Shown here in pieces: positions 25,021 through 51,359 of a stretch of DNA of 64,000 nucleotides. The notes under the pieces were generated by a model. It had not been told where the DNA came from. It was given only the letters and a program-made list of their open reading frames with translations, and made no database searches. A program made the position numbers and the translations under genes. Numbering within the stretch: the first letter of the stretch is position 1; every line of letters starts with the position of its first letter. The DNA lies in the sequence record NC_027356.1; one strand, given 5' to 3'. The stretch is from Escherichia phage DT57C.

Positions 25021-25220
25021 TATGCCAACTAACTATTATGTTTTACTAGACTAAGTAAGTATTCTTTATACTCTTTAGACCAGCTAGCTTTTTTAAACTT
25101 TCCTGGACGCATAGTCTTAATTCCTAGATTTGGTACTCCGGGAGGGATTTAACCCTGATCTCTCGGTTATCCGCCGAGTGCTTTGGATCGCTAAGCTACC
25201 GAAGCATTAAAATATTTACA

Positions 25221-26406: not shown

Positions 26407-26630
26407 AATTGAAAACTCGCAGGGTTAGCGAAACCATCCTCAATTAGCATGTTCTAGAATACTAATCAAGTTATCTACTATTGCACGCAGCTCAAGACGA
26501 GTACGAATTTTCAATTGTGGCGGCTCTCAGAAACTCTTCTACTCTAGTCTTAGCAGCTTACTCCCGAACGCATGTCGGGGAAGTCTTACCAAGAGCATCA
26601 AATAGCACCGTTACACTTTGAGCCATTATT

Positions 26631-26725
26631 TGGAGGTAGGTAAGGGGATCGAACCCTTACACCGTATCACTACGATCAACCGATTTCAAGTCGGAGTCCA
26701 GCGCCAGCCGTTGGATTGACTTACC
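26631..26725 (-). tRNA. Long tRNA, probable tRNA-Ser (anticodon UGA)
   Basis: T-arm AAGGG-TTCGATC-CCCTT, long variable region, anticodon loop CU-UGA-AA. Confidence 0.4.
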
Positions 26726-26737
26726 ATATAAGTTGTT

Positions 26738-26829
26738 TGGCGGAAGAGGAGAGATTTGAACTCTCAAGCCGTTTTACCAGTCAGCCACTTTCCAAGCGGT
26801 TTTCGTCGCCAATTCGATTTGCTCTTCCA
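26738..26829 (-). tRNA. Long tRNA, probable tRNA-Ser (anticodon GGA)
   Basis: Perfect acceptor GGAAGAG/CTCTTCC, T-arm GAGAG-TTCAAAT-CTCTC, long variable arm. Confidence 0.5.
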
Positions 26830-26940: not shown

Positions 26941-27017
26941 TGGTGCGTGACAAGGGATTCGAACCCTCAAAACCCGACTTCTAGGGACGGTATGTATGCC
27001 AATTCCATCAATCACGC
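26941..27017 (-). tRNA. tRNA (anticodon uncertain, possibly UAG)
   Basis: Acceptor GCGTGAT/GTCACGC, T-loop TTCGAAT, CCA encoded. Confidence 0.45.
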
Positions 27018-27022
27018 GTATT

Positions 27023-27096
27023 TGGTGGAGAAAGAGGGAGTTGAACCCTCGTCTTCTGCGTGCAAAGCAGATGTTCTACCATTAAACTATATCCCC
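27023..27096 (-). tRNA. tRNA, probable tRNA-Ala (anticodon UGC)
   Basis: Perfect anticodon stem TCTGC/GCAGA with loop TT-TGC-AC, T-loop TTCAACT. Confidence 0.5.
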
Positions 27097-27334
27097 AAAT
27101 TCTTTAGTTTACTAAGGCTATTAGCTCGGCGTAACTATAGCACCTTCGCTTCGAGCGGAAGGAACTACGTCATCTCGCAAACCCGATACACTATTCAGTT
27201 GCCGCTGAATCTAGTGGACTAATCTAGAACCTCTCCCGAGTCATAGGGATCGTGCTTTTTGGCAGCCAGTCCTAGGTCGAGCTAATACCTTAGTGAACTA
27301 TGATGAGGATTTCTCCCCATCAATTTATATAAAT

Positions 27335-27363
27335 ATTATAACAAGAAATTAAGCATTAAGCAA
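27335..27363 (-). promoter_or_regulatory. Sigma70-type early promoter driving an ORF-free stretch
   Basis: -10 27335-27340, -35 27358-27363; downstream minus-strand sequence has only a 12-codon ORF. Confidence 0.55.
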
Positions 27364-27383
27364 ATGAGTTTTTTCTTGAAATT

Positions 27384-27460
27384 GGTAGCGGGTTCCAGTA
27401 CTGCCCTGGACTTACTTAGCTTATGAGACTAAGAAGAACTCTATGCCTTCCACCCGCAAT
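27384..27460 (-). tRNA. tRNA-like, possibly CAU anticodon (Met/Ile2); non-canonical T-loop
   Basis: Anticodon loop CU-CAU-AA with stem TTAGT/GCTAA; T-loop GGCAGTA atypical. Confidence 0.35.
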
Positions 27461-27463
27461 TAT

Positions 27464-27540
27464 TTGGTCAGTGCGGCAGGACTCGAACCTGCGACCCGCA
27501 TCATCCGAGGGTCCCACGCTACCAACTGCGCTACACACTG
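27464..27540 (-). tRNA. tRNA (anticodon not resolved)
   Basis: Acceptor CAGTGTG/CGCACTG, T-arm GCAGG-TTCGAGT-CCTGC, D-loop AGTTGGTA, CCA encoded. Confidence 0.45.
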
Positions 27541-27548
27541 AAATTTTA

Positions 27549-27896
27549 TTAGTTTAACCGTAAAGTATTATCTACTTCACCATTAATTGTTCGGCATTCC
27601 TCTGGGATTGCTGGGGTGGCCTTGTATTCCCACCACTCAGCACCATCATATTCCCCACGTTCTAGCCAAGTTCCATCGGCAAACCATATATTACCATAAA
27701 GTAATTGTCCACCGTACCCAGAATCATATTCAAAGTCTAGGTTATTAAGAAAATCCTCAATATCTTCTTCTGTATAACCTAAAGGTAGTACCCAAACTTT
27801 TTTATCCCCATAATACCCGAATTCTATTTTAATACACTTAACTTCAGAATTAATATTTTTTAAGGCGAGTAACAGCTCTTCTTTAGCATTACGCAT
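27549..27896 (-). CDS. Hypothetical acidic protein
   Basis: 115-aa ORF. Confidence 0.5.
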   Translation of the reverse strand: MRNAKEELLLALKNINSEVKCIKIEFGYYGDKKVWVLPLGYTEEDIEDFLNNLDFEYDSGYGGQLLYGNIWFADGTWLERGEYDGAEWWEYKATPAIPEECRTINGEVDNTLRLN

Positions 27897-28190: not shown

Positions 28191-28292
28191 ATCTATTTCC
28201 TCAGTTATTAATGAAAATGGTATCTGTGGCTGAATTCGATGTCAGCAATGATAGCTGGTTGGCTACCGGTTTACTTAACTCTACACAGAATT

Positions 28293-29183: not shown

Positions 29184-29204
29184 GAATTTATAAGATATAT
29201 TATA

Positions 29205-29741
29205 TTAGAAATTTAGCTTCATAGCAAGAAAATTTTTCAAGTTTTCGGTAGACATCTCATCCACATCTACAGGAGAAACAAACCCATCTAATTGTCTAGC
29301 AAATTTTTCACCGGCAGGATCATTATCCCCAACAGCTACCAATTTAAAAGGTAGTAATTTCAATTGCTTTAACAACGCTTTTCCGGGGGAAGAACCCAAC
29401 ATTGCTAGGGCAGGATAACCAGCATTATGTAATGCTACAGCCTTAAATACAGATTCAGCAATCAATACTACTTTTTCATCCCCATTGAGAGTTTCTAGCC
29501 CCCATACACACTGTGTGGTAGAATAAGTAAAATATCTAGCTTCAGAGGGGCACTTACCATGACCTTTTGGAGCAGAAGGATTATAAATCTGATAGCCTCT
29601 CAGCATCCCAGAGAAGTCGTACAATGGGACTGTTAGCCATCCCTCCGGGCTTAACCAGCAATGATATTTATCTGTATCAAACCCTCTGGATAAGAGATGT
29701 TCTGTTAGTTCATCAACAGTCATATTAGATTCCTCTCTCAA
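29205..29741 (-). CDS. Hypothetical protein with TOPRIM-like motifs
   Basis: 178-aa ORF; LIAESVFKA and VAVGDNDPAG resemble TOPRIM E / DxD motifs. Confidence 0.4.
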   Translation of the reverse strand: MREESNMTVDELTEHLLSRGFDTDKYHCWLSPEGWLTVPLYDFSGMLRGYQIYNPSAPKGHGKCPSEARYFTYSTTQCVWGLETLNGDEKVVLIAESVFKAVALHNAGYPALAMLGSSPGKALLKQLKLLPFKLVAVGDNDPAGEKFARQLDGFVSPVDVDEMSTENLKNFLAMKLNF

Positions 29742-29761
29742 ATTATAAATATATTATACAG

Positions 29762-29790
29762 AGAATTTAGCATTCAAGCAATTGAATTTT
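29762..29790 (-). promoter_or_regulatory. Sigma70-type early promoter
   Basis: -10 29762-29767, -35 29785-29790 (TTGCTT). Confidence 0.6.
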
Positions 29791-29867
29791 TAAACTTTTT
29801 AGTGGAAAATCTCAAGACATTTAATGGCAGCACGTTGTTGCTGTAATAAGAGTATATGGTTCTAAAG

Positions 29868-29910
29868 AACCAAACAATAAAGCCCTGCGCTCTCCAGGGA
29901 ACGCAGGGCT
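29868..29910 (-). terminator. Rho-independent terminator (agccctgcg...cgcagggct)
   Basis: 9-bp stem followed on minus strand by T-rich tract. Confidence 0.55.
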
Positions 29911-29934
29911 TACTTCAGAGATTACATGCGGGTG

Positions 29935-30882
29935 TTATTTGTTACGCATGTCCATGATCATCTGGCCATCGTAACCAGTTCCCACAACTGTTTGCGGTAC
30001 ACCACCTTGATACTTCTGAGCACGAATCATTTCAACTTCTAGTTGTTTCCAACGAATCATCTCAGGAGTAATGGTACGTTGCAGAGCGGCGTTAGCCTCA
30101 GCTTCTTTCTTAGCTGCGTACAGTTTAGCATCTGCATCACGTTCGTTTGCAATAGCTTGGTTGTTACGAGCTTCACGATCTGCTTCTGCTTGTTTAACCT
30201 TCTGCTGTGCTTCTTGTTCAACACGAGCCAACTCAGCTTTCGCAGCATTAACTTGTTCTTCACGAACTTTGGTATTCTGTACCTGTTCCATGATTACAGG
30301 CGGCAAAGTAATATCCTGAAGGAACACTTGCTTAACTGTGTAACCATAAGGGCGTGCATACTCTTCAACTTCCTGTTGAATTGCAGTTTGTAATTGAGCC
30401 TGAATTTTAGCATCAAACAAATCTTGTGCTTTAGGAACAGACTTGCCGAACTCACGAATAGTAGACAGTAATTTTTCAGTTACATATTTGTCTAACGCTT
30501 GATCCTGAGTACCTGCATTAATACGGTTAATCGGTGCCTTAGAACCATCAAATTGTAACATAACAGTCAGGTCAACAGTGGATTTAAACTTATCCTGACT
30601 AGGAACCTGAAGTTTATCTAATTTTACAGCAATATCTTTTGTACTAAAAGTATCGAAAGATGCAAAGGGGTTTACAAGATGGAAGCCAGGTAATACTGGG
30701 TTAGGATCTACTTTACCAAGAAATGTTTGGGTTTTAACCGTACCATCGGAAACAATAGTATATGAATTAAAAGCTAGGATTAAACCTGCTAAACCAACTA
30801 CAGCACCAATACCCCAACGTTTAATAGTGCGCATTACTTTTTGCTCAGAAGTCAGTTCTTTCATATTTTTAGTATTAAACAT
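29935..30882 (-). CDS. SPFH/band-7 family membrane protein (HflC/prohibitin-like)
   Basis: 315-aa ORF; N-terminal TM helix, long Ala/Glu/Gln-rich coiled-coil C-terminus typical of SPFH proteins. Confidence 0.55.
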   Translation of the reverse strand: MFNTKNMKELTSEQKVMRTIKRWGIGAVVGLAGLILAFNSYTIVSDGTVKTQTFLGKVDPNPVLPGFHLVNPFASFDTFSTKDIAVKLDKLQVPSQDKFKSTVDLTVMLQFDGSKAPINRINAGTQDQALDKYVTEKLLSTIREFGKSVPKAQDLFDAKIQAQLQTAIQQEVEEYARPYGYTVKQVFLQDITLPPVIMEQVQNTKVREEQVNAAKAELARVEQEAQQKVKQAEADREARNNQAIANERDADAKLYAAKKEAEANAALQRTITPEMIRWKQLEVEMIRAQKYQGGVPQTVVGTGYDGQMIMDMRNK

Positions 30883-30916
30883 GTATTTCCTTTGTTTTAG
30901 TTACAGTTAATAAAAT

Positions 30917-30991
30917 TGGCCGAGGTGACAGGATTCGAACCTGCATAAAGGAATTTAGAAGACTCCTGCCTCTCCCTTAGACTACACCCCG
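30917..30991 (-). tRNA. tRNA, probable tRNA-Arg (anticodon UCU)
   Basis: Acceptor CGGGGTG/CACCTCG, T-arm GCAGG-TTCGAAT-CCTGT, loop CU-UCU-AA. Confidence 0.5.
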
Positions 30992-31492
30992 TTTAAGTAT
31001 TTTTAAGAACTCTCGTAAAAACTCTTAAAAATACAGACGATACCGGGAGAGTCATAAGTCTCACTCATTAAGTATTTCAAGACAAAATACAGTAACGTCT
31101 ATTATTTTCCAGTTTAAGTCAAGGTGACTTAGTGGTTATGCCCTGCGGTATACTGAGGACTCGGTTAGGCTAGGGTCATGACTCCCCGCTTTTTGCTGCT
31201 ACTCAACAGGAATTATCGCGAATTACCTGTGCTATTGTGCACCATTAGTGGCATCTCTCATGCCAGCATTTCCCACTTTGTGGATAGTTTGAAAAACTAC
31301 TCCGATATGGAGGGAGAACTTCACTATCCTAGAATACCTTCTAAAGTTCTTCTTTAGCCTGGACATAGTTAAATCGTAATAAAACTATTCAGCAGACTGG
31401 TTGATTAGCCTGGAACCAACTACCGCGTGGTTTAGGCAGTGCGCAACTAACCTCGGAAGCTTTTACGTTAAAAGCACCAGTTATCCAGCTCT

Positions 31493-31562
31493 TACCGATC
31501 GTAGGATTCGAACCTACATCTTCCACCAGTTACGGCTTGATAATACCGTTTATACTAGATCG
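31493..31562 (-). tRNA. tRNA-like (anticodon not resolved; no encoded CCA)
   Basis: Perfect T-arm GTAGG-TTCGAAT-CCTAC and acceptor GCCGATC/GATCGGT. Confidence 0.35.
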
Positions 31563-31640
31563 GCAGTGTTACTACATAAGTGATTTCCACACCCCACCAT
31601 CAATAAATTAGGGAAGAATTACTCTCTAATTTATGAATAT

Positions 31641-31669
31641 ATTATACAGAATTTATAAGCATTTAGCAA
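31641..31669 (-). promoter_or_regulatory. Sigma70-type early promoter (TTGCTA-17-TATAAT)
   Basis: -10 31641-31646, -35 31664-31669; transcribes toward tRNA-like gene and ORF-free 31000-31490. Confidence 0.55.
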
Positions 31670-31677
31670 ATGAATTT

Positions 31678-32112
31678 TTAGAAAAATTCACTAGCAATCA
31701 GAGCGGCTGTTTTACCATCATAACGCCCTGGAAACTCTGCCTTAATAGTTTTCATTAAGAGAGCTTTGGTAATACCTGGGTTTAGCTTAACCAATTCTGC
31801 AAAATATTTACGAATTTCGGTTTCAGTCAGTTGACTTGGCTGATACTCTTGCAGCATGAAATAAAGCAGTTGCTCGTAGTCTACATCAGTAGGAACTTTC
31901 GTACCAACTTTAATAGCACGCTGCTTTGCAGTTTCTAGAGCTTTAATCTGGGCTTTCAGATAAGCTACGAACTCGGTTCGAGTAACAACGTCTTTATTAA
32001 TGCGTTGCAAGTCACCAATCATAGTCTGGAGATTGATTGCCCGCTCTTTGTCACCGTGGATACGTGCTAGACTAAGCAGTCCACGAAGGGTCATTAGAAT
32101 ATTTTCACCCAT
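31678..32112 (-). CDS. Hypothetical protein
   Basis: 144-aa ORF; start overlaps stop of upstream small ORF. Confidence 0.5.
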   Translation of the reverse strand: MGENILMTLRGLLSLARIHGDKERAINLQTMIGDLQRINKDVVTRTEFVAYLKAQIKALETAKQRAIKVGTKVPTDVDYEQLLYFMLQEYQPSQLTETEIRKYFAELVKLNPGITKALLMKTIKAEFPGRYDGKTAALIASEFF

Positions 32113-32282
32113 TATTTCATCCCCAATGCTTGGTTGAAAGATTGTTCTGTCATAACTGCTGAGACTTTGGCGAAATCAAACTTTTTAGGGTTCGTAGTGA
32201 TCTCAGCAACGTTGGAAGTTTTAACAGTTTTCGTAGTACGAATACCGCGAGTGTTAACACCAATAATTACAACTGATTTCAT
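32112..32282 (-). CDS. Small hypothetical protein (~56 aa), not in ORF track
   Basis: By-eye: GGAAGCGAAAT-ATG context; MKSVVIIGVNTRGIRTTKTVKTSNVAEITTNPKKFDFAKVSAVMTEQSFNQALGMK; downstream of promoter. Confidence 0.35.
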   Translation of the reverse strand: MKSVVIIGVNTRGIRTTKTVKTSNVAEITTNPKKFDFAKVSAVMTEQSFNQALGMK

Positions 32283-32313
32283 ATTTCGCTTCCTCTCATT
32301 AATTTATGAAAGT

Positions 32314-32342
32314 ATTATACAGAAGTTTAAGTATTTAAGCAA
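32314..32342 (-). promoter_or_regulatory. Sigma70-type early promoter
   Basis: -10 32314-32319, -35 32337-32342 (TTGCTT). Confidence 0.6.
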
Positions 32343-32350
32343 ATAAATTT

Positions 32351-32818
32351 TTAAGTTTTAGTGACAGCAGGCTTATAAAATGTATGTCCCTTAATCTTGG
32401 TTGTTTTCTTAAACTTCTTTGTCCAGTATGGTTTATCTTTACCACTATGGAAGTATAAGGCCCCATGTGTAGGATCTTGTGGTAAATCAACGTAGTATAT
32501 CACTCTAGCTAAATTCTTGGCGGTTTGCCAAGCCTCATCGGTTTTATCAACTTTTGGTCTCTTAGATACCCAAGAGAACTGGTTAGACTGATATACTACT
32601 TTACAGTAGGAATCTGGGAATTTACCGGAGTTTACACGGTTTTTAGTAACGTGTGCAATCGCCGTCATTCCCTTTATGCCCTCACCACGACTTTCGAAAT
32701 AGATATTTTTAGCAATGCAATCTATTTCTTTTGCATCGTGCGATGCTTGACTACTAAAGCTGAAGGTAAGGGCAGCTACTAAAAGCAAAGCTGCCTTCAT
32801 TCTTTTTACTCCTGCCAA
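32351..32818 (-). CDS. Cell wall hydrolase (SleB/CwlJ-like) with signal peptide
   Basis: 155-aa ORF; signal peptide, motif CIAKNIYFESRGEG. Confidence 0.55.
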   Translation of the reverse strand: MAGVKRMKAALLLVAALTFSFSSQASHDAKEIDCIAKNIYFESRGEGIKGMTAIAHVTKNRVNSGKFPDSYCKVVYQSNQFSWVSKRPKVDKTDEAWQTAKNLARVIYYVDLPQDPTHGALYFHSGKDKPYWTKKFKKTTKIKGHTFYKPAVTKT

Positions 32819-33123
32819 TCGTATTCAATACGATTGGGGTTTTCTTTGTATCCCAAGTCAAGCAAATCATTACGCATAGTTTGCTTAGCTACGGGATTCG
32901 AGGTTACTAGTACCACTTTCTTTGGTCTCTGCCCAAATTCTAAGAGTAAACGAAGAATTTGATAACCTTCCATACCATCTACAGCCAAATCGTTGTCGAA
33001 ATAAACAAAATGGCCAGTGGTATCAGTCTTATTCAGAAACTCAACAGCGGCTTCTGGGGTTCGAATGATAATGTCCATTCCGTGAAGATTACGCACATCA
33101 TCAATCAAAATATGAAAAGTCAT
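32806..33123 (-). CDS. Hypothetical protein
   Basis: 105-aa ORF downstream of promoter. Confidence 0.5.
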   Translation of the reverse strand: MTFHILIDDVRNLHGMDIIIRTPEAAVEFLNKTDTTGHFVYFDNDLAVDGMEGYQILRLLLEFGQRPKKVVLVTSNPVAKQTMRNDLLDLGYKENPNRIEYDWQE

Positions 33124-33153
33124 AATAGCCTCGTTTCATCAATTTAAAAATAT

Positions 33154-33182
33154 ATTATACAGAGAACTTAATAAATTAGCAA
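33154..33182 (-). promoter_or_regulatory. Sigma70-type early promoter (TTGCTA-17-TATAAT)
   Basis: -10 33154-33159, -35 33177-33182. Confidence 0.6.
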
Positions 33183-33565
33183 ATACATTTTTAAATTGTG
33201 AAACTAGTAAACCGATAAACAGCCTAGGGGCGCCACAGGCCATATCTTACGAGCCATGTACCTTTGATCTAGGGTTTGAATCATCAACGAATACTTTGCA
33301 TCTTTTAGCTTTAGAAGTTTAGAAGTTTGAGTTCTTTAAACTTTTCAGCTTTCATACTTAAATGTTGATCTTTGAAGTTGTGTCGGTAATATCAACGACT
33401 CTTTGTTTTTACGTGTCAGATTAAATGTCCGATGTAATAAACATAATCTCCAATAGATTATACTTTATAGTATGGTCAGCGGTCTTATTTAACCTCGTAT
33501 TTCAACCGCTGCTGCGAGGTAAGATGCTTGGGCTTTCGTCTACCGATTTACTAGCTTTTAAATTA

Positions 33566-34204
33566 TTACTCTACTTCAATGAAAGTAGAGGCGTTAGACT
33601 CGGACAGAACAAAGTCAACATTAGTTGCAAAGTCCTGATATTCCTCGTCATGTTGTTTAATCAGCTTCTCCAGTTCCAGCGGATCAATCAAGAATGGGGT
33701 ATTCTTGAGTTCCAACAGGTTGAGCTGCATTTTAACTTCATCTTCGGAAGTTTTCTTATCGCGGGTAGCCATGCTATCCTGCAAACGCTCATATTTAGCA
33801 TCAAACTGTGCTTTCTGCGTATTAAACTTAACCGTAGCGGCATGGAACTGCTTACGCATATTAGCCAGCAACTGAGCTTTAAGCTCCATAGAACGCTTAG
33901 CTTCAATTGCTTCTGCAACAGTCATTTTACGAGAGCCAATCTCAACGATTGTTTCCGCATTGCTCTTAATCAATGCTGCTTTGATACGATCACGCTGGGA
34001 CATCATATCCAGCAGAGACTGGAAATCTGTCTTAATACGATTAGACAGATCTTCTACTTCGATTGCAGCGCCAACTACAACCTTATTTTTATCCTTACCT
34101 TCACCAACAGCGATCAGAAGCTGTTGTTCAGTAGCTTTACGGATTTTAGCTTCCAGAGATTTGATGGTTGCCAGAGCACGAGTTTTAGAGATACGAGCGG
34201 GCAT
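33566..34204 (-). CDS. Hypothetical coiled-coil protein (host-optimal codon usage)
   Basis: 212-aa ORF; codons dominated by ctg/cgt/gct/ggt; plus-strand 265-aa ORF on opposite strand judged antisense artefact. Confidence 0.6.
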   Translation of the reverse strand: MPARISKTRALATIKSLEAKIRKATEQQLLIAVGEGKDKNKVVVGAAIEVEDLSNRIKTDFQSLLDMMSQRDRIKAALIKSNAETIVEIGSRKMTVAEAIEAKRSMELKAQLLANMRKQFHAATVKFNTQKAQFDAKYERLQDSMATRDKKTSEDEVKMQLNLLELKNTPFLIDPLELEKLIKQHDEEYQDFATNVDFVLSESNASTFIEVE

Positions 34205-34256
34205 TGTTTATTCCTTACATGAAGTTTAAGATTTGAATTTGTTTAAAGTTGGTCTA

Positions 34257-34439
34257 TTACAGACCCATTGCCAGTAAGGTACGCAGAACAGTATCTTTAC
34301 TGTTATCAATTTTAGGATTAACACGATTTAGCAGATCAAAGATTTTCTGGACACCTGATTGACGTTCAGCCATACGACGGATACCCAGATTACGAGTAGC
34401 TTTCTTACCATTTTTACGGACATTTTTAGATACTGGCAT
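34257..34439 (-). CDS. Small basic protein
   Basis: 60-aa ORF downstream of promoter. Confidence 0.45.
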   Translation of the reverse strand: MPVSKNVRKNGKKATRNLGIRRMAERQSGVQKIFDLLNRVNPKIDNSKDTVLRTLLAMGL

Positions 34440-34467
34440 ATTTGTTTTCCTTTTGTTGTTTTCTCAA

Positions 34468-34511
34468 ATTTATGAATATATTATACAGAATTTATGAATA
34501 TATTATACAGA
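34468..34511. repeat. Tandem duplication of 22-bp promoter -10 region (tttatgaatatattatacagaa x2)
   Basis: Identical tandem copies read directly. Confidence 0.8.
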
Positions 34512-34530
34512 ATTTTGGAGCCGGAAGCAA
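34502..34530 (-). promoter_or_regulatory. Sigma70-type early promoter
   Basis: -10 34502-34507 (second copy), -35 34525-34530 (TTGCTT). Confidence 0.55.
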
Positions 34531-34531
34531 A

Positions 34532-35233
34532 TCAAATTTTCATTTTTTCGATCATAGCTGCAACACAATAGCTCTCAACTAAGGCATCGAATGCTGGGTC
34601 GTGCTTAACCGGATATATCCCGTAACGAATGGTGTCCATCTTCTCCATCTTGGCTTTTGCCCAGCTAATACCTTCGGTCTCTAGAGCCTTATAACTGTAT
34701 CCAGCTTGCATCCAGAGATTACGAAGAGATCGAACATTACCCAAATTCCAGAATTTCCACGGAACTATTTCTTCATTGGTTCCAGCATGGAAAGTGTTTG
34801 CAGAGTAGATAGTCATATCAAACTCTGGGCCATTGCCGTAATATAAAGCATTTTCGCCTAGAGCCAACTCCATAATATTTTGGGTCATAGAGAAGGCAGC
34901 ATGGTTAGAGCCGAGCTTATTAGTACAGTGATGTTTACCATCTCGAAAAGCAATCAGCTTTGGATTATGCTCATTCATAGCTTCCATAATGTGGAGAGCA
35001 GACGGACTATTTTTAGCTTGATCCATCCAGAATGCTAGAGTAGATGCCGTAACTTTAGCTCCAGAATTAAGCTGGTCTTGCACATCCAAAGTAACAAACA
35101 CTAGATCAGGGTCTTTATCAATTCCATGCATAGCCACAAAAGCGAAGGAAGGCATTGCGATATGAGTAGTACCACAATCTCCTGGAGTTCCTAGAGATTC
35201 AATATCTAACATACCAAATGGTTTTACTTTCAT
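34532..35233 (-). CDS. Putative 3'-5' exonuclease (DEDDh/DnaQ-like)
   Basis: 233-aa ORF; MLDIESLG (Exo I-like), HDPAFD (Exo III-like H-x4-D). Confidence 0.4.
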   Translation of the reverse strand: MKVKPFGMLDIESLGTPGDCGTTHIAMPSFAFVAMHGIDKDPDLVFVTLDVQDQLNSGAKVTASTLAFWMDQAKNSPSALHIMEAMNEHNPKLIAFRDGKHHCTNKLGSNHAAFSMTQNIMELALGENALYYGNGPEFDMTIYSANTFHAGTNEEIVPWKFWNLGNVRSLRNLWMQAGYSYKALETEGISWAKAKMEKMDTIRYGIYPVKHDPAFDALVESYCVAAMIEKMKI

Positions 35234-35261
35234 AACTTATCCTTTATTGTGTAGAAAACTA

Positions 35262-35498
35262 TTAAAGAGCTGTCTCTTTAATAGACTCCCACTTCTTGGG
35301 GTCTTTAAAACCAGGAAGCATATCTTCACTAACATCCCAGTTTTCTTCCGTAGAAAAGTCTGGCCATTCATTCCAGTTACCTTCCAGCTCTTCATACCAG
35401 GTATCCATTACCTCGCGATTAGAAAGTCGTGTATAGTCTCTAGCGGACTTATGAGTGCTAGCACGGTTAAAATCATTCTTTGCTACAAAATTACGCAT
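35262..35498 (-). CDS. Hypothetical acidic protein
   Basis: 78-aa ORF. Confidence 0.45.
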   Translation of the reverse strand: MRNFVAKNDFNRASTHKSARDYTRLSNREVMDTWYEELEGNWNEWPDFSTEENWDVSEDMLPGFKDPKKWESIKETAL

Positions 35499-35514
35499 AG
35501 TTTCTCCAAAAATA

Positions 35515-35532
35515 TGAGGGGCTTTCGCCCCT
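35515..35532 (-). terminator. Rho-independent terminator (gaggggc tttc gcccctc)
   Basis: 7-bp GC stem, tetraloop, T-rich tail on minus strand. Confidence 0.55.
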
Positions 35533-35540
35533 CTTATCTA

Positions 35541-36056
35541 TTACTTCGCTTTACGTTTACGAGCTGGTTTAGCAGATTTACGAGCAGAATCACCCGTAAA
35601 TTTAATACCCACACCATAGCACAGAGCACGAACGTTATCTTTGCTATATTCTACGCCGAAGATATTTGGCTTAACAGAACCAAACTGGCCACGAGTATCA
35701 CGCAGTACATCTGCCGTTGGTTTACGCTTCTGGTTAACTGCTTTTTCGTAATCTTTCATGGCCATGCCATTACGAGGGAACAATTCAGCTCCAGCATTGA
35801 AACTCAGTGTTACTGGAACAGATTTGTGACCGTAACCCTGTACATAGGTTACGAGGCGGACTACAGAACGAGTAGCATTCTTAGCCTTCGGCTTTTGACG
35901 AATCGGAGCCGGACGATTCAGTGCCTGTGCAGCTTGAGCATCAGTAGGATGCTTGCGCAGGTGGCGTTCCAGACGAGCTTTGCGGTTAGCCTCAGTCTGT
36001 GGGAAAGTTTTAACTGCCGGAGCTGCTTGAGTTTTTGCGTTTTTCTGCTTAGCCAT
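35541..36056 (-). CDS. Basic hypothetical protein (host-optimal codon usage)
   Basis: 171-aa ORF; plus-strand 280-aa ORF opposite judged antisense artefact. Confidence 0.55.
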   Translation of the reverse strand: MAKQKNAKTQAAPAVKTFPQTEANRKARLERHLRKHPTDAQAAQALNRPAPIRQKPKAKNATRSVVRLVTYVQGYGHKSVPVTLSFNAGAELFPRNGMAMKDYEKAVNQKRKPTADVLRDTRGQFGSVKPNIFGVEYSKDNVRALCYGVGIKFTGDSARKSAKPARKRKAK

Positions 36057-36094
36057 TATTTGTTTTCCTTTTTGTTTATCAATTTATGAAGTAT

Positions 36095-36123
36095 ATTATA
36101 CGAGAATTTGAAGCGTTCAGCAA
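36095..36123 (-). promoter_or_regulatory. Sigma70-type early promoter (TTGCTG-17-TATAAT)
   Basis: -10 36095-36100, -35 36118-36123. Confidence 0.55.
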
Positions 36124-36139
36124 ATGAATTTTTTAAAAA

Positions 36140-36418
36140 TTATCTGCCAACCATCTTAGCTTGTTCGGCATCTGAGACATATTGATACGCTCCTTTATTA
36201 TACGCTGGAGCAGTACACATTTTCTTACGCTCAATCTCTTCTTGAGCTTTTCTTTCGCGTTCAGCTAATTCTTCATCCAGATAAACTAAACGTTGTTCTG
36301 GAGGAGGTGGAAGACGTGTTTCTGGCTCACCAATATTAGCCTTTCTTATTTGACGAGGTGATTGTGCACGTTTTCTCAACGGTTTAAATCCTAATGAATT
36401 TGAGTTATAAATTCGCAT
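36140..36418 (-). CDS. Hypothetical protein
   Basis: 92-aa ORF. Confidence 0.5.
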   Translation of the reverse strand: MRIYNSNSLGFKPLRKRAQSPRQIRKANIGEPETRLPPPPEQRLVYLDEELAERERKAQEEIERKKMCTAPAYNKGAYQYVSDAEQAKMVGR

Positions 36419-36445
36419 AAAGCCCTCCTCACTTTCAATACGAAT

Positions 36446-36474
36446 ATTATACTAAATTAGAGGGCTTTAAGCAA
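36446..36474 (-). promoter_or_regulatory. Sigma70-type early promoter enclosed by 8-bp inverted repeat (aagccctc...gagggctt)
   Basis: -10 36446-36451, -35 36469-36474. Confidence 0.55.
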
Positions 36475-36494
36475 CTGAATTTTTAAATTATTTA

Positions 36495-36971
36495 TTACAT
36501 CTCCGCAAGTTCTTGCTCAGTAATAACTGTATTACACAGTGCATCTACAGCTTCATTACCACTAATACCAGAATGTCCTTTAACCTTAATAAAGGTAGGA
36601 TTAGTATTGTGAAAGTTGATATACTGCTGTGTTAATTTAAATGCTTCCTGCCAAAGTTCTAGATTAAGAGGAACCTCACCATCTGCTTTCTTCCAGCCTT
36701 TCCTTTGCCAAGAAAACATCCAGCTTTCCATGCCATTTTTGCAATAAGCAGAGTCAGTATAGATAACAATTGGTCTATTATCCTTTTTAACGGACCAACG
36801 TAGAGCTTCTACAATAGCTGTGAGTTCCATCTCATTATTTGTAGTTTTAGGACTATAGCCAGATTTAGAGCCTAGACGATCGTCATTATCATCATAGACA
36901 ATAAAACCCCAAGCACCGGGACCTGGGTTGGACTTACAAGCACCATCTGTGTAAATGTGGAAAACCGACAT
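36495..36971 (-). CDS. rnh: Ribonuclease H (RNase HI)
   Basis: Motif DGACKSNPGPGAWG; start set at ATG 36971 (GGAG RBS) rather than upstream TTG of track ORF 36495-36983. Confidence 0.75.
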   Translation of the reverse strand: MSVFHIYTDGACKSNPGPGAWGFIVYDDNDDRLGSKSGYSPKTTNNEMELTAIVEALRWSVKKDNRPIVIYTDSAYCKNGMESWMFSWQRKGWKKADGEVPLNLELWQEAFKLTQQYINFHNTNPTFIKVKGHSGISGNEAVDALCNTVITEQELAEM

Positions 36972-37032
36972 TATTTGCTCCAATTAATAGTTACCCAATA
37001 GCCTTCACGCTAATTACGATCAAGTAAAATAT

Positions 37033-37062
37033 ATTATATTTGAAATTATACCTAATAAGCAA
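37033..37062 (-). promoter_or_regulatory. Sigma70-type promoter embedded in ~20-bp inverted repeat
   Basis: -35 TTGCTT (37057-37062), -10 TATAAT (37033-37038); flanking IR atattatatttgaaattatac / gtataatttcaaatataat. Confidence 0.45.
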
Positions 37063-37080
37063 GTATAATTTCAAATATAA

Positions 37081-37096
37081 TAGCCCCGAAGGGCTA
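37081..37096 (-). terminator. Rho-independent terminator (tagccc cgaa gggcta)
   Basis: Hairpin after thyA stop with T-rich tail on minus strand. Confidence 0.5.
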
Positions 37097-37102
37097 TTTA
37101 AG

Positions 37103-37942
37103 TTAAGAGGACATTTTAGCTTTAAGAGCTGGATGAGGATCGTACCCCTCTAAGTGGAATGACCAGGCTGCTGTATTATTTTCTAATAAGTCGTAAAGAT
37201 CTACAAATTCTGGCATTACTAGAGTTGGTAAAGAACGAGGTTTACGTTTTACCTGTTCTTCTACCTGTTCCATGTGGTCATTATAGATATGAGTATCACC
37301 GCCACTAAAGATAAGATAACGAGGTTTTAATCCTGTCAGTTTTGCTAATATATGCGTTAATAAAGCATAACTAGCGATATTGAAAGGTAAACCGAGGAAA
37401 CAATCCACAGAGCGTTGTGTCCATTTAAGATCTAAGTACCCATCATTACTTACATAGCACTGGAAGCCGTAGTGACAGGGTGGTAATGCCATTTTATCAA
37501 GTTCAGCTACGTTCCATGCAGAAACTAGATGTCTGCGGCCATGTGGATTATTCTTGAGTCCTTCAATAAGTTCTAGAATCTGATCTCGCCCACCAAAGTT
37601 ACGCCACTGTTTACCATATACTGGTCCTAGATTACCATTATCATATCCCATACTTATAGCTTGGTCTTCATAATTTGGAGTCCAGATGGTCCACTGTCCT
37701 TCGTCACGACCAAATGTGAATACACGTAGATCATGAAGATTTGTGGAACCAGACAAGAACCATAAAAGTTCTCCAACTACCGATTTCCAAGCTAGACGTT
37801 TAGTAGTTACAGCCGGGAACCCGTCACGTAGATCGAACTTAGCATAGGAATCAAAAATTGAAACTGTGCCTGTTCCTGTACGGTCATTACGGGGTTCACC
37901 TAGTAAAATTACATCTGTCAAAATTTTTAAGTATTGTTGCAT
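37103..37942 (-). CDS. thyA: Thymidylate synthase
   Basis: 279-aa ORF; active-site motif LPPCHYGFQCYV. Confidence 0.8.
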   Translation of the reverse strand: MQQYLKILTDVILLGEPRNDRTGTGTVSIFDSYAKFDLRDGFPAVTTKRLAWKSVVGELLWFLSGSTNLHDLRVFTFGRDEGQWTIWTPNYEDQAISMGYDNGNLGPVYGKQWRNFGGRDQILELIEGLKNNPHGRRHLVSAWNVAELDKMALPPCHYGFQCYVSNDGYLDLKWTQRSVDCFLGLPFNIASYALLTHILAKLTGLKPRYLIFSGGDTHIYNDHMEQVEEQVKRKPRSLPTLVMPEFVDLYDLLENNTAAWSFHLEGYDPHPALKAKMSS

Positions 37943-38475
37943 TAATAAGTAACCAATTCCTGTACAAATCGCAGGCTGTTATCACTGTTTGCGCCAGTTG
38001 CGTAAACTAATCGAGTAGATTCATAGTTGTAATCTAGAATCGTATTATCCAGATGTACATCTGCCTCTAGCTTCTGTTCGCTAAAGATTGTAGATACAAA
38101 AGCACTTTCTATATGCCCATGTTGGTACATCTCTAGAAGAAGATTAGCTCCGCCTAGAACTACTGTTTGCTGATCTTTTAAGAACGTGGGCAATGTATCC
38201 CCAATCTTAGAAATTGGGGTGTAAATATCATGTGTAATATCGTCTGGCAATGGACGATCAGCACGAATAAATAGGTCAGAAGTTCCAATCATACGTTCCC
38301 TAACGGCGTATGGAAGAGCTAAATAAGTACCAGCACCAATAATAATATTATTAGGATTTAGTACATCTAATTGTGAATAAAAAGCACCTAGTTCTTCTTT
38401 AAAAGAACCCCAGGGAAGCTTACCTCGGAGGCCGAACTCCCCATTCGGCCCAACTGCATACATTGCTGTAATCAC
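37942..38475 (-). CDS. frd: Dihydrofolate reductase
   Basis: 177-aa ORF; size, position next to thyA, DHFR-like N-terminus. Confidence 0.6.
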   Translation of the reverse strand: MITAMYAVGPNGEFGLRGKLPWGSFKEELGAFYSQLDVLNPNNIIIGAGTYLALPYAVRERMIGTSDLFIRADRPLPDDITHDIYTPISKIGDTLPTFLKDQQTVVLGGANLLLEMYQHGHIESAFVSTIFSEQKLEADVHLDNTILDYNYESTRLVYATGANSDNSLRFVQELVTY

Positions 38476-39617
38476 AGGAAATCTCCAAATTCATTGCCCA
38501 GATCTTTCAGAGTATCAGTAGAAGTCTCAGTTACCTGACCTACACGATAGGCTGCACCAATCTGGATTTCTTGTGGAGCAGGCTGTAGAGAAGTAGTATC
38601 CAACCAGTTCATGATCCACGGAATAGGGTTTTTAGTGATTACTGGTAAGTGACTAGGCCATTCTACGCCAATGTGCATAAACGCGTTGCGTCCTACAAAG
38701 TACAGGTACTCTTCTAACAGTTCTGCATTCAAACCAATCAGGCTACGACCGTTGAAAATGAAATGACCCCATTCAATTTCAGTTTTCAGAGTTTTCAGGA
38801 GCTGTGCTGGTGCTTTAGCCACTGCTTCATCTACCAGATCTTTGTCAAACTGCTGGAACATAATCTGGATGATTGTTTTAGACATCTGAGTATGTAAGGC
38901 TTCATCTTTAGCAATCAATTGCAGATTTTTAGCAATACCTTGCAGAATATCGTTCTCTGCTAACGCAAAGGTACATGCAAAGGATGCGTAAAACTGCATT
39001 GCTTCCAGACCGTAGATTGCAAAATAAGCATCTAACAGTTTAGCCTGAGTTTCACGCTTAACTTCAGGGAACTCAGTTTCTGGATACGTATTGTCACCAC
39101 GATGATCACGTACTGCGATGAAATACTGACCTAACTGGTACAGTTCATCAAACAGTTCAACAGAATCTGCGATACGTGCGAATGCTTCTTGGTTTTTGGT
39201 TACAGAATCAATAAATTCTGCTGGATCAGTCAGCACATTACGAATAATATTACTATATGCACGGCTATGCAGATCTTCGAAGTAGCTCCACTGCTTGAGC
39301 ATACCTTCCAATTCTGGACGGCTTACCAGCGGCATAATAGCTGCTTCAGGCGCTCGACTGATAAAGGAATCAGTTTGAGTCTGCCATGCTAAGTTCAGGA
39401 GTGTGATTTCCTGAATTTCACGTGGGAGATTGGGCCATTGTTTCTTATCGGCTTCTAAACTGATTTCTGTCTCAGTCCAAAATTGAGAGCGAGCTAATAA
39501 CGCCAGCCTTTCCAGCTCTGGATGGGCTACTCGTACATAATCTGCGATACCTAGAGAATCACCGAGAAATAGATCTTTATTGGTATGATCCCAGTTTAAG
39601 TTAAGTAAAGTTGTCAT
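38472..39617 (-). CDS. nrdB: Ribonucleotide reductase class Ia small subunit
   Basis: 381-aa ORF downstream of nrdA; ferritin-like pattern. Confidence 0.7.
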   Translation of the reverse strand: MTTLLNLNWDHTNKDLFLGDSLGIADYVRVAHPELERLALLARSQFWTETEISLEADKKQWPNLPREIQEITLLNLAWQTQTDSFISRAPEAAIMPLVSRPELEGMLKQWSYFEDLHSRAYSNIIRNVLTDPAEFIDSVTKNQEAFARIADSVELFDELYQLGQYFIAVRDHRGDNTYPETEFPEVKRETQAKLLDAYFAIYGLEAMQFYASFACTFALAENDILQGIAKNLQLIAKDEALHTQMSKTIIQIMFQQFDKDLVDEAVAKAPAQLLKTLKTEIEWGHFIFNGRSLIGLNAELLEEYLYFVGRNAFMHIGVEWPSHLPVITKNPIPWIMNWLDTTSLQPAPQEIQIGAAYRVGQVTETSTDTLKDLGNEFGDFL

Positions 39618-39625
39618 TAGTTCTC

Positions 39626-40141
39626 CTATTTATCTGTGTTTCTAAGTAGTGTTGGATCTTTGGTTATAGAGAGGATTAAAGAATCTCGATACTCTATCGC
39701 CTCTTCTAGAGTTGGAAGAGTTTTCACGTATTCTTTTCCGTTAATGGATTTTCTAACTTGAAATCCAGACCCTTTCTTCCGAATATTCTTAGTACCCAAT
39801 ATATTGTTTTTACTGGTTTTTCTATTTTGACTATTTAACTGCCAGTCTGCTTCTCTTAGATTAGTCCACTTATAGTTTAGTGGATCTCCATCTATATGGT
39901 CAACCATAACTTTGGGTAAGTTTCCTGTCATGTACAGAAAAGCAATATTTTGTGCAGGGTACTTCTTACCCTTGATTTGTATTACTAAGTCTTTTCGGTT
40001 AGGATCTACTGAGTGTGGTTTTAAACAACCAGCAGGTAGTCCTCTTACTTTATTGTGTACTTCTTGGTTATTTAACCAAGTAAATGTTCCTTCATCTGGA
40101 TTATACTCCAGAATCCTTTTTAATTCATCTTGTGTTATCAA
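39626..40141 (-). CDS. HNH homing endonuclease (AP2-like C-terminal domain), TTG start
   Basis: 171-aa ORF between nrdA and nrdB; HIDGDPLNY HNH-like motif; own promoter and AAGGAG RBS. Confidence 0.6.
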   Translation of the reverse strand: MITQDELKRILEYNPDEGTFTWLNNQEVHNKVRGLPAGCLKPHSVDPNRKDLVIQIKGKKYPAQNIAFLYMTGNLPKVMVDHIDGDPLNYKWTNLREADWQLNSQNRKTSKNNILGTKNIRKKGSGFQVRKSINGKEYVKTLPTLEEAIEYRDSLILSITKDPTLLRNTDK

Positions 40142-51330: not shown

Positions 51331-51359
51331 TTGCTTTCAGGAAAATTTTTCTGTATAAT
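51331..51359 (+). promoter_or_regulatory. Strong early promoter resembling T5 PN25 as recalled (TTGCTT-17-TATAAT with A-rich upstream element)
   Basis: Sequence tcataaaaaatttatttgctttcaggaaaatttttctgtataatagattcataaatttgagagaggag read directly; identity to PN25 is from memory, not a search. Confidence 0.65.

Follow-up and report, generated by a model that had tools for sequence, protein, structure and literature searches.

A probable orthologue of the T5 stable RNA gene rna2H at the head of a tRNA operon in Escherichia phage DT57C

Which product is made behind the leftward early promoter inside the tRNA gene cluster of Escherichia phage DT57C? An initial annotation had described the interval that follows this promoter (positions 27100-27334) as free of open reading frames (ORFs) and rich in hairpins, and had named two candidates, a small structured RNA and a tRNA of high divergence. 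We analyzed a window of 64,000 nucleotides (nt) of the phage genome (NC_027356.1). Coordinates refer to this window unless another record is named, and the feature lies on its minus strand. We conclude, with a probability of about 0.85, that the interval is the orthologue of the T5 gene rna2H and gives rise to RNA2H, a promoter-driven, structured and processed non-coding RNA of ~172 nt. This figure covers the identity only; the processing enzyme and the function are graded separately.

A megablast search with positions 27000-27560 yielded matches in 495 phage records, the best being the Tequintavirus phages Gostya9 (97.7%) and DT571/2 (96.8%). At the orthologous place DT571/2 (KM979355, 26424..26595, complement) carries a misc_RNA feature annotated as 'rna2H: RNA2H, stable RNA with unknown functions'. 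The T5 genome has an annotation of this gene too (NC_005859, 31808..31979, complement), together with 'promoter P13b' (32001..32075), and so has the record of the BF23 tRNA region (NC_042564, 4056..4227, complement), where P13b is annotated as well. T5 rna2H aligned to window positions 27287..27116 over its full length (172/172 nt) with 94.8% identity, and the two copies differ by point substitutions only. The gene order is also shared: the RNA lies on the same strand, with P13b directly upstream and tRNA-Ala and tRNA-Leu downstream. The two loci diverge upstream of P13b, where T5 has tRNA-Val, tRNA-Lys and ORF T5.065. All three are missing in DT57C, Gostya9 and DT571/2, in which a degenerate tRNA-fMet-like gene abuts the promoter instead. 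Since the gene and its promoter are already named in the GenBank records of T5, BF23 and DT571/2, the observation is real but the feature is not new. A literature search found no paper discussing RNA2H. New are a covariation-backed structure, the strand assignment, the geometry of the terminal helix and the modular exchange of hairpins.

The structural analysis used two alignments, one of 29 distinct loci that extends from the promoter to the trailer and one, A2, that contains 23 distinct sequences of the core. The edges of conservation are exact. The conserved unit of 194 nt starts with AGUUCAC (27299) and ends with AAACU (27106), and these two ends pair with each other; beyond 27106 the sequence differs between phages. 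Both this unit and the mature RNA as defined by homology (27287..27116) fall within 27100-27334. In folding calculations the interval was more stable than all of 200 dinucleotide shuffles, with z-scores of -4.5 for 27097-27329 and -3.5 for 27106-27299. A refined model of 60 base pairs is paired in 99.8% of the alignment cells of the 23 homologues, compared to 94.0% in column shuffles and 26-45% when the pairing partners were slid against each other. It contains 13 pairs with double changes, a number reached by none of 500 shuffles. The consensus calculated by RNAalifold contains 10 covarying pairs. Covariation across T5-like phages thus supports the structure.

The conserved unit is closed by a terminal helix P1 of 21 pairs (27299-27278 with 27128-27106), interrupted by a single mismatch and a single bulge; its cells are 99.8% paired across the 23 sequences. 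The helix shows a double change from G-C to A-U and two changes from A-U to G·U; the compensatory change, found in phage STyj5-1, and one of the A-U to G·U changes lie in its inner part. The 5' strand of outer P1, AGUUCACUAAGG (27288..27299), pairs with 27117..27106 at 11 of 12 positions and is absent from the mature RNA. The opposite strand, CCUUAGUAAACU (27106..27117), contributes 27117 and 27116 to the mature RNA as a 3' overhang, and its remainder is trailer. In inner P1 the 3' strand CGAGCUAAUAG (27118..27128) forms 10-11 base pairs (bp) with 27287..27278. By homology to the T5 annotation the mature RNA2H of 172 nt (27116..27287) starts with 5' UAUUAGCUCG and ends with CGAGCUAAUAGCC 3'.

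Two arms of the molecule vary between phages. The H5 arm (27129..27178) consists of a base of three pairs, GCG/CGC (27178..27176 with 27131..27129), which can stack on P1, and a long hairpin. It occurs in three sequence versions among the phages, all of them paired, and eight of its pairs show double changes. At the boundary of the swapped module the base pair (columns 149-197) is C-G, U-A or A-U. The variable hairpin Hvar (27234..27249) has a short form in DT57C, UCCC-loop-GGGA. Epseptimavirus relatives carry three different, longer hairpins at the same junction, and two pairs of Hvar show double changes. Hvar and H5 are exchanged as whole modules between phages, with pairing kept and the core invariant.

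The core comprises two further hairpins. H3 (27210..27228, UCUAG-AUUAGUCCA-CUAGA) shows two compensatory pairs in phage SE7. Its loop contains AGUCC (27220..27216), which could pair with GGACU (27272..27268) as a pseudoknot; this proposal is based on invariant bases and two wobble-compatible changes, and one change breaks it. H4 (27194..27209, UUCAG-CGGCAA-CUGAA) is invariant, and since its pairs never vary the alignment neither supports nor refutes them. Both hairpins pointed out in the initial annotation are present, at plus-strand positions 27143-27162 (ccttcgc/ttcga/gcggaagg, the tip of H5) and 27193-27210 (attcag/ttgccg/ctgaat, H4). The sequence ACCU (27274..27277) may form a short helix P2' with GGGU (27184..27181) that would close the central domain. 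The evidence for P2' is weak: 92 of 92 cells are paired and two one-sided changes keep the pairing (C-G to U·G and U·G to C-G), with no double change. The interior also has a short GCU/AGC stem. RNAalifold favored a different central fold, pairing columns 25-32 with 95-102 and 110-114 with 133-137 of alignment A2. We prefer H3 together with the possible GGACU/AGUCC pseudoknot because SE7 and phage 100268_sal2 break the RNAalifold pairing. As the central part hardly varies, it is weakly determined.

The folding energy cannot tell which strand is the folded one (-67.8 versus -68.0 kcal/mol). Read as the minus strand, however, the helix cells contain 92 G·U pairs versus a single A·C, a count somewhat biased by a model that was built on this strand. 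All one-sided substitutions but one are wobble pairs on the minus strand and would be mismatches if the plus strand were read. The folded molecule is therefore the minus-strand transcript, and the promoter points the way that this G·U excess among single substitutions would require. The compensatory changes, the hairpin swaps that preserve pairing and this minus-strand signal bear out the proposal of a small structured RNA, which also matches the 'stable RNA' annotation of T5, BF23 and DT571/2.

The promoter itself was found exactly where it had been predicted (27335..27363), pointing leftward. Its sequence, motif class and invariance as well as the annotation of T5 and BF23 identify it as a T5-type sigma-70 early promoter orthologous to P13b. 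On the minus strand the -35 element TTGCTT (27363..27358) and the -10 element TATAAT (27340..27335) are separated by a spacer of 17 nt, and an A-rich tract lies upstream (27364-27380). The block from -35 to about +20 is unchanged across the homologues aligned. The motif TTGCT-N18-TATAAT occurs at 23 sites in the window, compared to 0.17 expected by chance from shuffles, and the orientation of these T5-type promoters follows the transcription units, leftward up to ~44 kb and rightward beyond. A generic sigma-70 scan of the window did not list the P13b orthologue because TTGCTT agrees with TTGACA at only three of six positions. Transcription is predicted to start at an A at 27328, 7 nt past the -10 hexamer, as judged by the spacing and by analogy to the T5 promoter PN25. 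Another site of the promoter motif (51331-51359, plus strand), TTGCTTTCAGGAAAATTTTTCTGTATAAT, looks identical to the core of the classic T5 PN25 promoter of expression vectors.

Downstream, a terminator scan gave no terminator-like site in 27097-27334. An Hfq-type small RNA would carry a Rho-independent terminator with a U tail; lacking a terminator, RNA2H is not of this type. The 3' end of the mature RNA2H and tRNA-Ala (27096..27023) are connected by a spacer (27097..27115) of 19 nt, UUAGUAAACUAAAGAAUUU, which is AU-rich, and tRNA-Leu follows next. The missing terminator and the position of tRNA-Ala 19 nt downstream make RNA2H the first cistron of a polycistronic tRNA precursor, from which it must be released by processing.

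Which enzyme releases the RNA is less certain. P1 has the length of the duplexes (~20 bp or more) found in RNAs processed by RNase III. The ends annotated in T5 (5' UAUUAG..., ...AAUAGCC 3') fall after column 12 on the 5' strand and after column 211 on the 3' strand of P1. As columns 11-12 pair with 210-211, these ends are staggered by 2 bp in the middle of the duplex and leave a 2-nt 3' overhang. Because of this stagger within a 21-bp duplex we regard RNase III as the most likely enzyme, with about an even chance of being the right one. RNase III has been reported to take part in tRNA maturation in phage T4 (PMC4810235). The arrangement resembles the RNase III stems of bacterial 16S and 23S precursors, in which the flanks form a duplex of about two helical turns. 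Unlike in rRNA operons, the enclosed RNA has 172 nt and heads a tRNA operon, and cleavage at this site is predicted from the geometry of the helix.

A tRNA-like maturation is a less probable route to the same ends. RNase P would cut 5' of U27287, with P1 and the stacked base of H5 mimicking an acceptor/T-stem. U27287-A27119 would correspond to the pair 1:72, G27118 to the discriminator base and C27117 and C27116 to positions 74 and 75, and for the 3' end RNase E would cut in the AU-rich spacer before exonucleases trim the product. The annotated ends indeed read N73-C74-C75 after a 10-bp helix, whose 3' strand runs unbroken into the 3-bp base of H5 to give 13 stacked pairs compared to 12 in a tRNA, and neighboring T5 stable RNAs end in GCCA or ACCA. 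However, leader and trailer pair for another 12 bp, precisely the segment that is conserved, and neither the 5' leader nor the CC would be accessible to RNase P in this duplex. The bases at -1 and +1 are G and U, opposite to the usual preference of RNase P, and RNA2H has neither a T-loop nor a D-loop. We disfavor this route because the pairing of leader and trailer is conserved.

Based on the structure and its conservation we propose the following scheme for the formation and action of RNA2H. Host RNA polymerase would start at about 27328 and make the polycistronic precursor. The RNA would then be excised within its long terminal helix, most likely by RNase III, and the compact product would accumulate. 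Its invariant core, including the possible GGACU/AGUCC pseudoknot, the H4 loop and the junction strands, may provide a protein-binding surface. We tentatively suggest that RNA2H acts in trans as an accessory protein scaffold or decoy whose importance is limited to certain hosts, a proposal to which we give slightly less than even odds. An invariant core with exchangeable arms is what would be expected of a folded particle that binds a partner, rather than of a mere processing signal. For the T5 mutants T5Mos (deletion 30661-38625) and T5-123 (deletion 29191-32442) the deleted parts have been reported to be non-essential (PMC11464382). The numbering used there is that of NC_005859, and both deletions take out rna2H (31808..31979). 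We consider the RNA accessory because these mutants lack it, and propose a host-limited role because T5 mutants without it grow in laboratory E. coli.

The main alternative, which we judge less likely than the role in trans, assigns the element a role in cis only. As a leader and processing module it would use the long helix as an entry site for RNase III and as a 5' stabilizer, and so control how much is made of the tRNAs downstream (Ala, Leu, Ser, Ser and those after them), and the excised piece would be a by-product without function. In agreement with this, the element comes first after the promoter and no terminator separates it from the tRNAs, and the 21-bp flank helix is similar to the processing stems of rRNA operons. 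Dispensability is equally compatible, since the laboratory T5 mutants lose the downstream tRNAs too. However, a processing helix needs no interior of ~150 nt. Phages of two genera have the same loops and junction strands, whereas the adjacent upstream leader is freely replaced, and the swapped hairpins stay in place and paired, suggesting that selection acts on a folded particle. The term 'stable' used in GenBank also implies an RNA that accumulates.

The accessory scaffold or decoy could take a more specific form, which appears quite unlikely at present. The core would bind a host or phage protein, and the arms Hvar and H5 would be fitted to factors that differ between hosts, for example RNA-guided or RNA-cleaving defense proteins. 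If so, RNA2H would represent an undescribed kind of counter-defense RNA. The module swaps between lineages adapted to E. coli and to Salmonella, the dispensability in laboratory strains and the location in a region that holds anti-defense tRNAs would all fit. The T5 tRNA region counteracts host defense by tRNA-Lys, directed against PARIS, and tRNA-Tyr, directed against Retron-Eco7. Because the region carries such functions, its co-transcribed stable RNAs are reasonable next candidates. An antisense target within the window was considered separately. The longest perfect complement in the window comprises 14 nt (RNA2H nt 62-75, positions 27226-27213 in the region of the H3 loop, versus 39857-39870, in minus-strand mRNA inside a 171-aa ORF, 39626..40141). 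We take it as a probable chance match, since 1 of 30 shuffles reached at least 14 nt. The sequence of this minus-strand ORF looks like an HNH homing endonuclease.

Several points weigh against the picture developed so far. The covariation stems largely from two to three block-swapped haplotypes and so represents few independent events. The core is mostly invariant, and the pairings proposed for H4, the pseudoknot and P2' would have to stand without covariation support. RNAalifold favors the other central fold, with SE7 as the single phage that discriminates between the two. By energy both strands are equally stable. The label 'stable RNA' comes from GenBank notes. The case for RNase III depends on ends taken over from the T5 annotation, which also fit a tRNA-like acceptor terminus. 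No result obtained here indicates a particular binding partner of RNA2H.

It is very improbable that the interval holds a tRNA of high divergence or several decayed tRNA genes in a row. Its position inside a tRNA cluster would suit this explanation, a truly degenerate tRNA-fMet-like gene lies just upstream (27378-27461), and T5 annotators label some of the neighboring RNAs tRNA-like. ARAGORN, however, run at default and at thresholds of 95, 90, 85 and 80%, detected no tRNA in 27097-27334, while at 80% it recovered the degenerate tRNA-Met and two tRNA-Ser genes elsewhere. Rfam 15, with its families of Y RNA, 6S RNA, tmRNA, ribozymes, riboswitches and small RNAs, gave no minus-strand match in this interval, either at gathering scores or at E<=10, so that the tRNA and tRNA-like models are silent there. 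Rfam was likewise negative for the variant forms of RNA2H from phages Stitch, EPS7 and STyj5-1. The sole match touching the interval is a plus-strand hit of HPnc0260 (27325-27503; 26 bits compared to a gathering score of 59; E = 4.8), which we regard as noise. The covariation-backed fold is a multi-branched structure closed by a 21-bp helix and not a cloverleaf, and RNA2H has no significant similarity to T5 RNA2 or other T5 small RNAs. The absence of a canonical T-loop had been recognized correctly in the initial annotation. Its alternative of a highly divergent tRNA has to be rejected, since cloverleaf, T-loop and any match to a tRNA model are lacking even at relaxed thresholds.

Similarly improbable is a conserved element at the level of DNA, such as a site of replication or recombination or a target of a homing endonuclease. 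Several relatives have homing endonuclease genes close by, as insertions, the module swaps reveal recombination in the region, and both strands have an equal folding energy, which would fit such an element. The 92:1 ratio of G·U to A·C, however, is unlike double-stranded DNA or a cruciform, and a strong promoter reads straight into the block.

Coding potential was rejected as well. On the minus strand no ORF of at least 20 amino acids (aa) is present in 27097-27415, and the sole sense-strand ORF has 12 codons (ATG at 27320, MGRNPHHSSLRY). On the plus strand a mechanical ORF with a GTG start (26947..27222, 91 aa), antisense to tRNA-Leu and tRNA-Ala, overlaps the interval; it has no counterpart in T5 or Stitch. 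Neither of the two ORFs is conserved. The description of the interval as ORF-free thus holds in substance, as the sense strand has only the 12-codon ORF, but not literally, given the overlap with the 91-aa ORF. The short ORF is located in a predicted 5' leader hairpin (27302..27321, GAUGGGGAG-AAAU-CCUCAUC). Four Epseptimavirus phages (STyj5-1, poul149, PHZ191 and KKP_3831) have, between the -10 element of P13b and RNA2H, an insert of ~115 nt in place of this 20-nt hairpin, with the stem halves GAUG...CAUC retained on either side of it. Since the hairpin is replaced and the ORF destroyed in these phages, the leader hairpin is neither part of the conserved RNA nor coding. The insert was also considered as a separate RNA and rejected (z = -1.06 on folding, no Rfam match). 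A micropeptide is hardly credible: the 12-codon ORF is present in the predicted transcript, but it has no Shine-Dalgarno sequence upstream, its ATG sits within the leader hairpin, and it is shortened to ATG-TGA in four relatives in which the downstream sequence is still conserved.

To determine the distribution of RNA2H we searched 50,697 phage records with the 194-nt block by blastn. It was found at 427 places in 425 records, so that nearly all genomes have a single copy. By organism name the carriers are mainly phages of Salmonella (265) and Escherichia (123), and all matches listed are T5-like. In the search for wider diversity, hits in Klebsiella and Providencia phages proved to be mere look-alikes of the promoter, located in the region of replication. 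With a covariance model derived from the 23 homologues, a single copy was detected in the window (27106-27299, 231.5 bits) and likewise a single copy in T5, with no second copy in either, and nothing in a Sugarlandvirus or a Priunavirus segment. A 16-mer scan of IMG/VR returned mostly chance matches and isolate genomes already known, and the metagenome scan gave seven contigs, all of the T5 type, with no new kinds of sequence. There was no blastn match in 5,426 complete E. coli genomes (E<=10) and none in the plasmids of PLSDB, and an origin from host or plasmid was rejected on these grounds. In nearly every record the matching segment is either left without annotation or covered by a 'hypothetical protein'. 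The latter is seen, for example, in GEC_vB_N5 and CECAV_FGS017, and among the records inspected RNA2H is named only in T5, BF23 and DT571/2. An RNA that is present in more than 400 T5-like phages, nearly always once, is thus mostly unannotated or hidden under a spurious protein, and it is missing from Rfam decades after the first description of the small stable RNAs of T5. The covariation-backed structure and the processing model make targeted experiments straightforward.

RNA2H shares its neighborhood, the direction of transcription and the label 'unknown functions' with the T5 stable RNAs RNAI, RNAIII, RNAIV, RNA1, RNA2, RNA3 and RNAX. Unlike these, it is placed directly behind a promoter, and it resembles none of them in sequence or by model. 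Three of them (RNA1, RNA2 and RNA3) carry a tRNA-like annotation, and the canonical T arm seen in RNA2 is missing from RNA2H. A homology to RNA2, as the name might suggest, was rejected: the best local alignment covers 21 nt and is no better than those with other T5 RNAs, and the RNA2H covariance model gave no match to RNA2. The species 1 and 2 RNAs of phage T4 (rnaC and rnaD) are stable non-tRNA RNAs that are co-transcribed with a tRNA cluster and dispensable in the laboratory. RNA2H is like them in kind only, as a stable non-tRNA RNA in a phage tRNA cluster; no homology was detected, the matches listed from the phage records (blastn, word size 11) being exclusively T5-like. Bacterial Y RNAs of the YrlA type, which serve as protein scaffolds, also have a size of 100-200 nt, end in a long stem and carry a structured module opposite to it. 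In contrast to these, RNA2H has no Rfam match at E<=10 and no tRNA-like T arm, so that the likeness is an analogy only. E. coli K-12 hosts are not known to carry Ro/Rsr. The long form of Hvar in five Epseptimavirus loci contains CCCC-loop-GCGGGGGAUA. It is partially reminiscent of the hairpin of the type I-E CRISPR repeat, CCCCGCGCCAGCGGGGAUA; the short form of DT57C shows no such likeness.

The tRNA cluster around RNA2H lies on the minus strand, with 13 tRNA genes according to ARAGORN and 14 according to Rfam. The degenerate tRNA-fMet-like gene (27378-27461, anticodon CAU) is located between tRNA-Pro and the promoter. It was detected by ARAGORN only at 80% and missed by the Rfam tRNA model. 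The gene shares the acceptor stem and the anticodon arm with T5 tRNA-fMet and differs in the D and T arms, its T loop being the non-canonical GGCAGUA. Its conservation is 96-100% in Gostya9, DT571/2 and three further relatives; neither the Gostya9 nor the DT571/2 record has an annotation for it. Two tRNA-Ser genes with long arms (26635-26725, UGA, and 26738-26828, GGA; minus strand) are annotated in DT571/2 and T5. ARAGORN at default and Rfam at gathering scores missed both, and they were seen as sub-threshold matches to tRNA-Sec and by ARAGORN at 80-90%. An Rfam tRNA match of 43.5 bits at 25134-25205 (minus strand) was not reported by ARAGORN; Gostya9 has an annotated tRNA-Ile at the matching place.

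Alignment of the T5 stable RNAs to the window gave no match for RNA1, RNAIV and RNA2. Homologues of four others were located on the minus strand by their identity to T5/BF23: RNAIII (26408-26513, 99%), RNAI (26518-26624, 92%), RNA3 (28218-28290, 100%) and RNAX (30992-31620, 96.5% over 630 nt). A 'tRNA-Ser(act)' reported by ARAGORN at 31492-31565 falls within the RNAX homologue.

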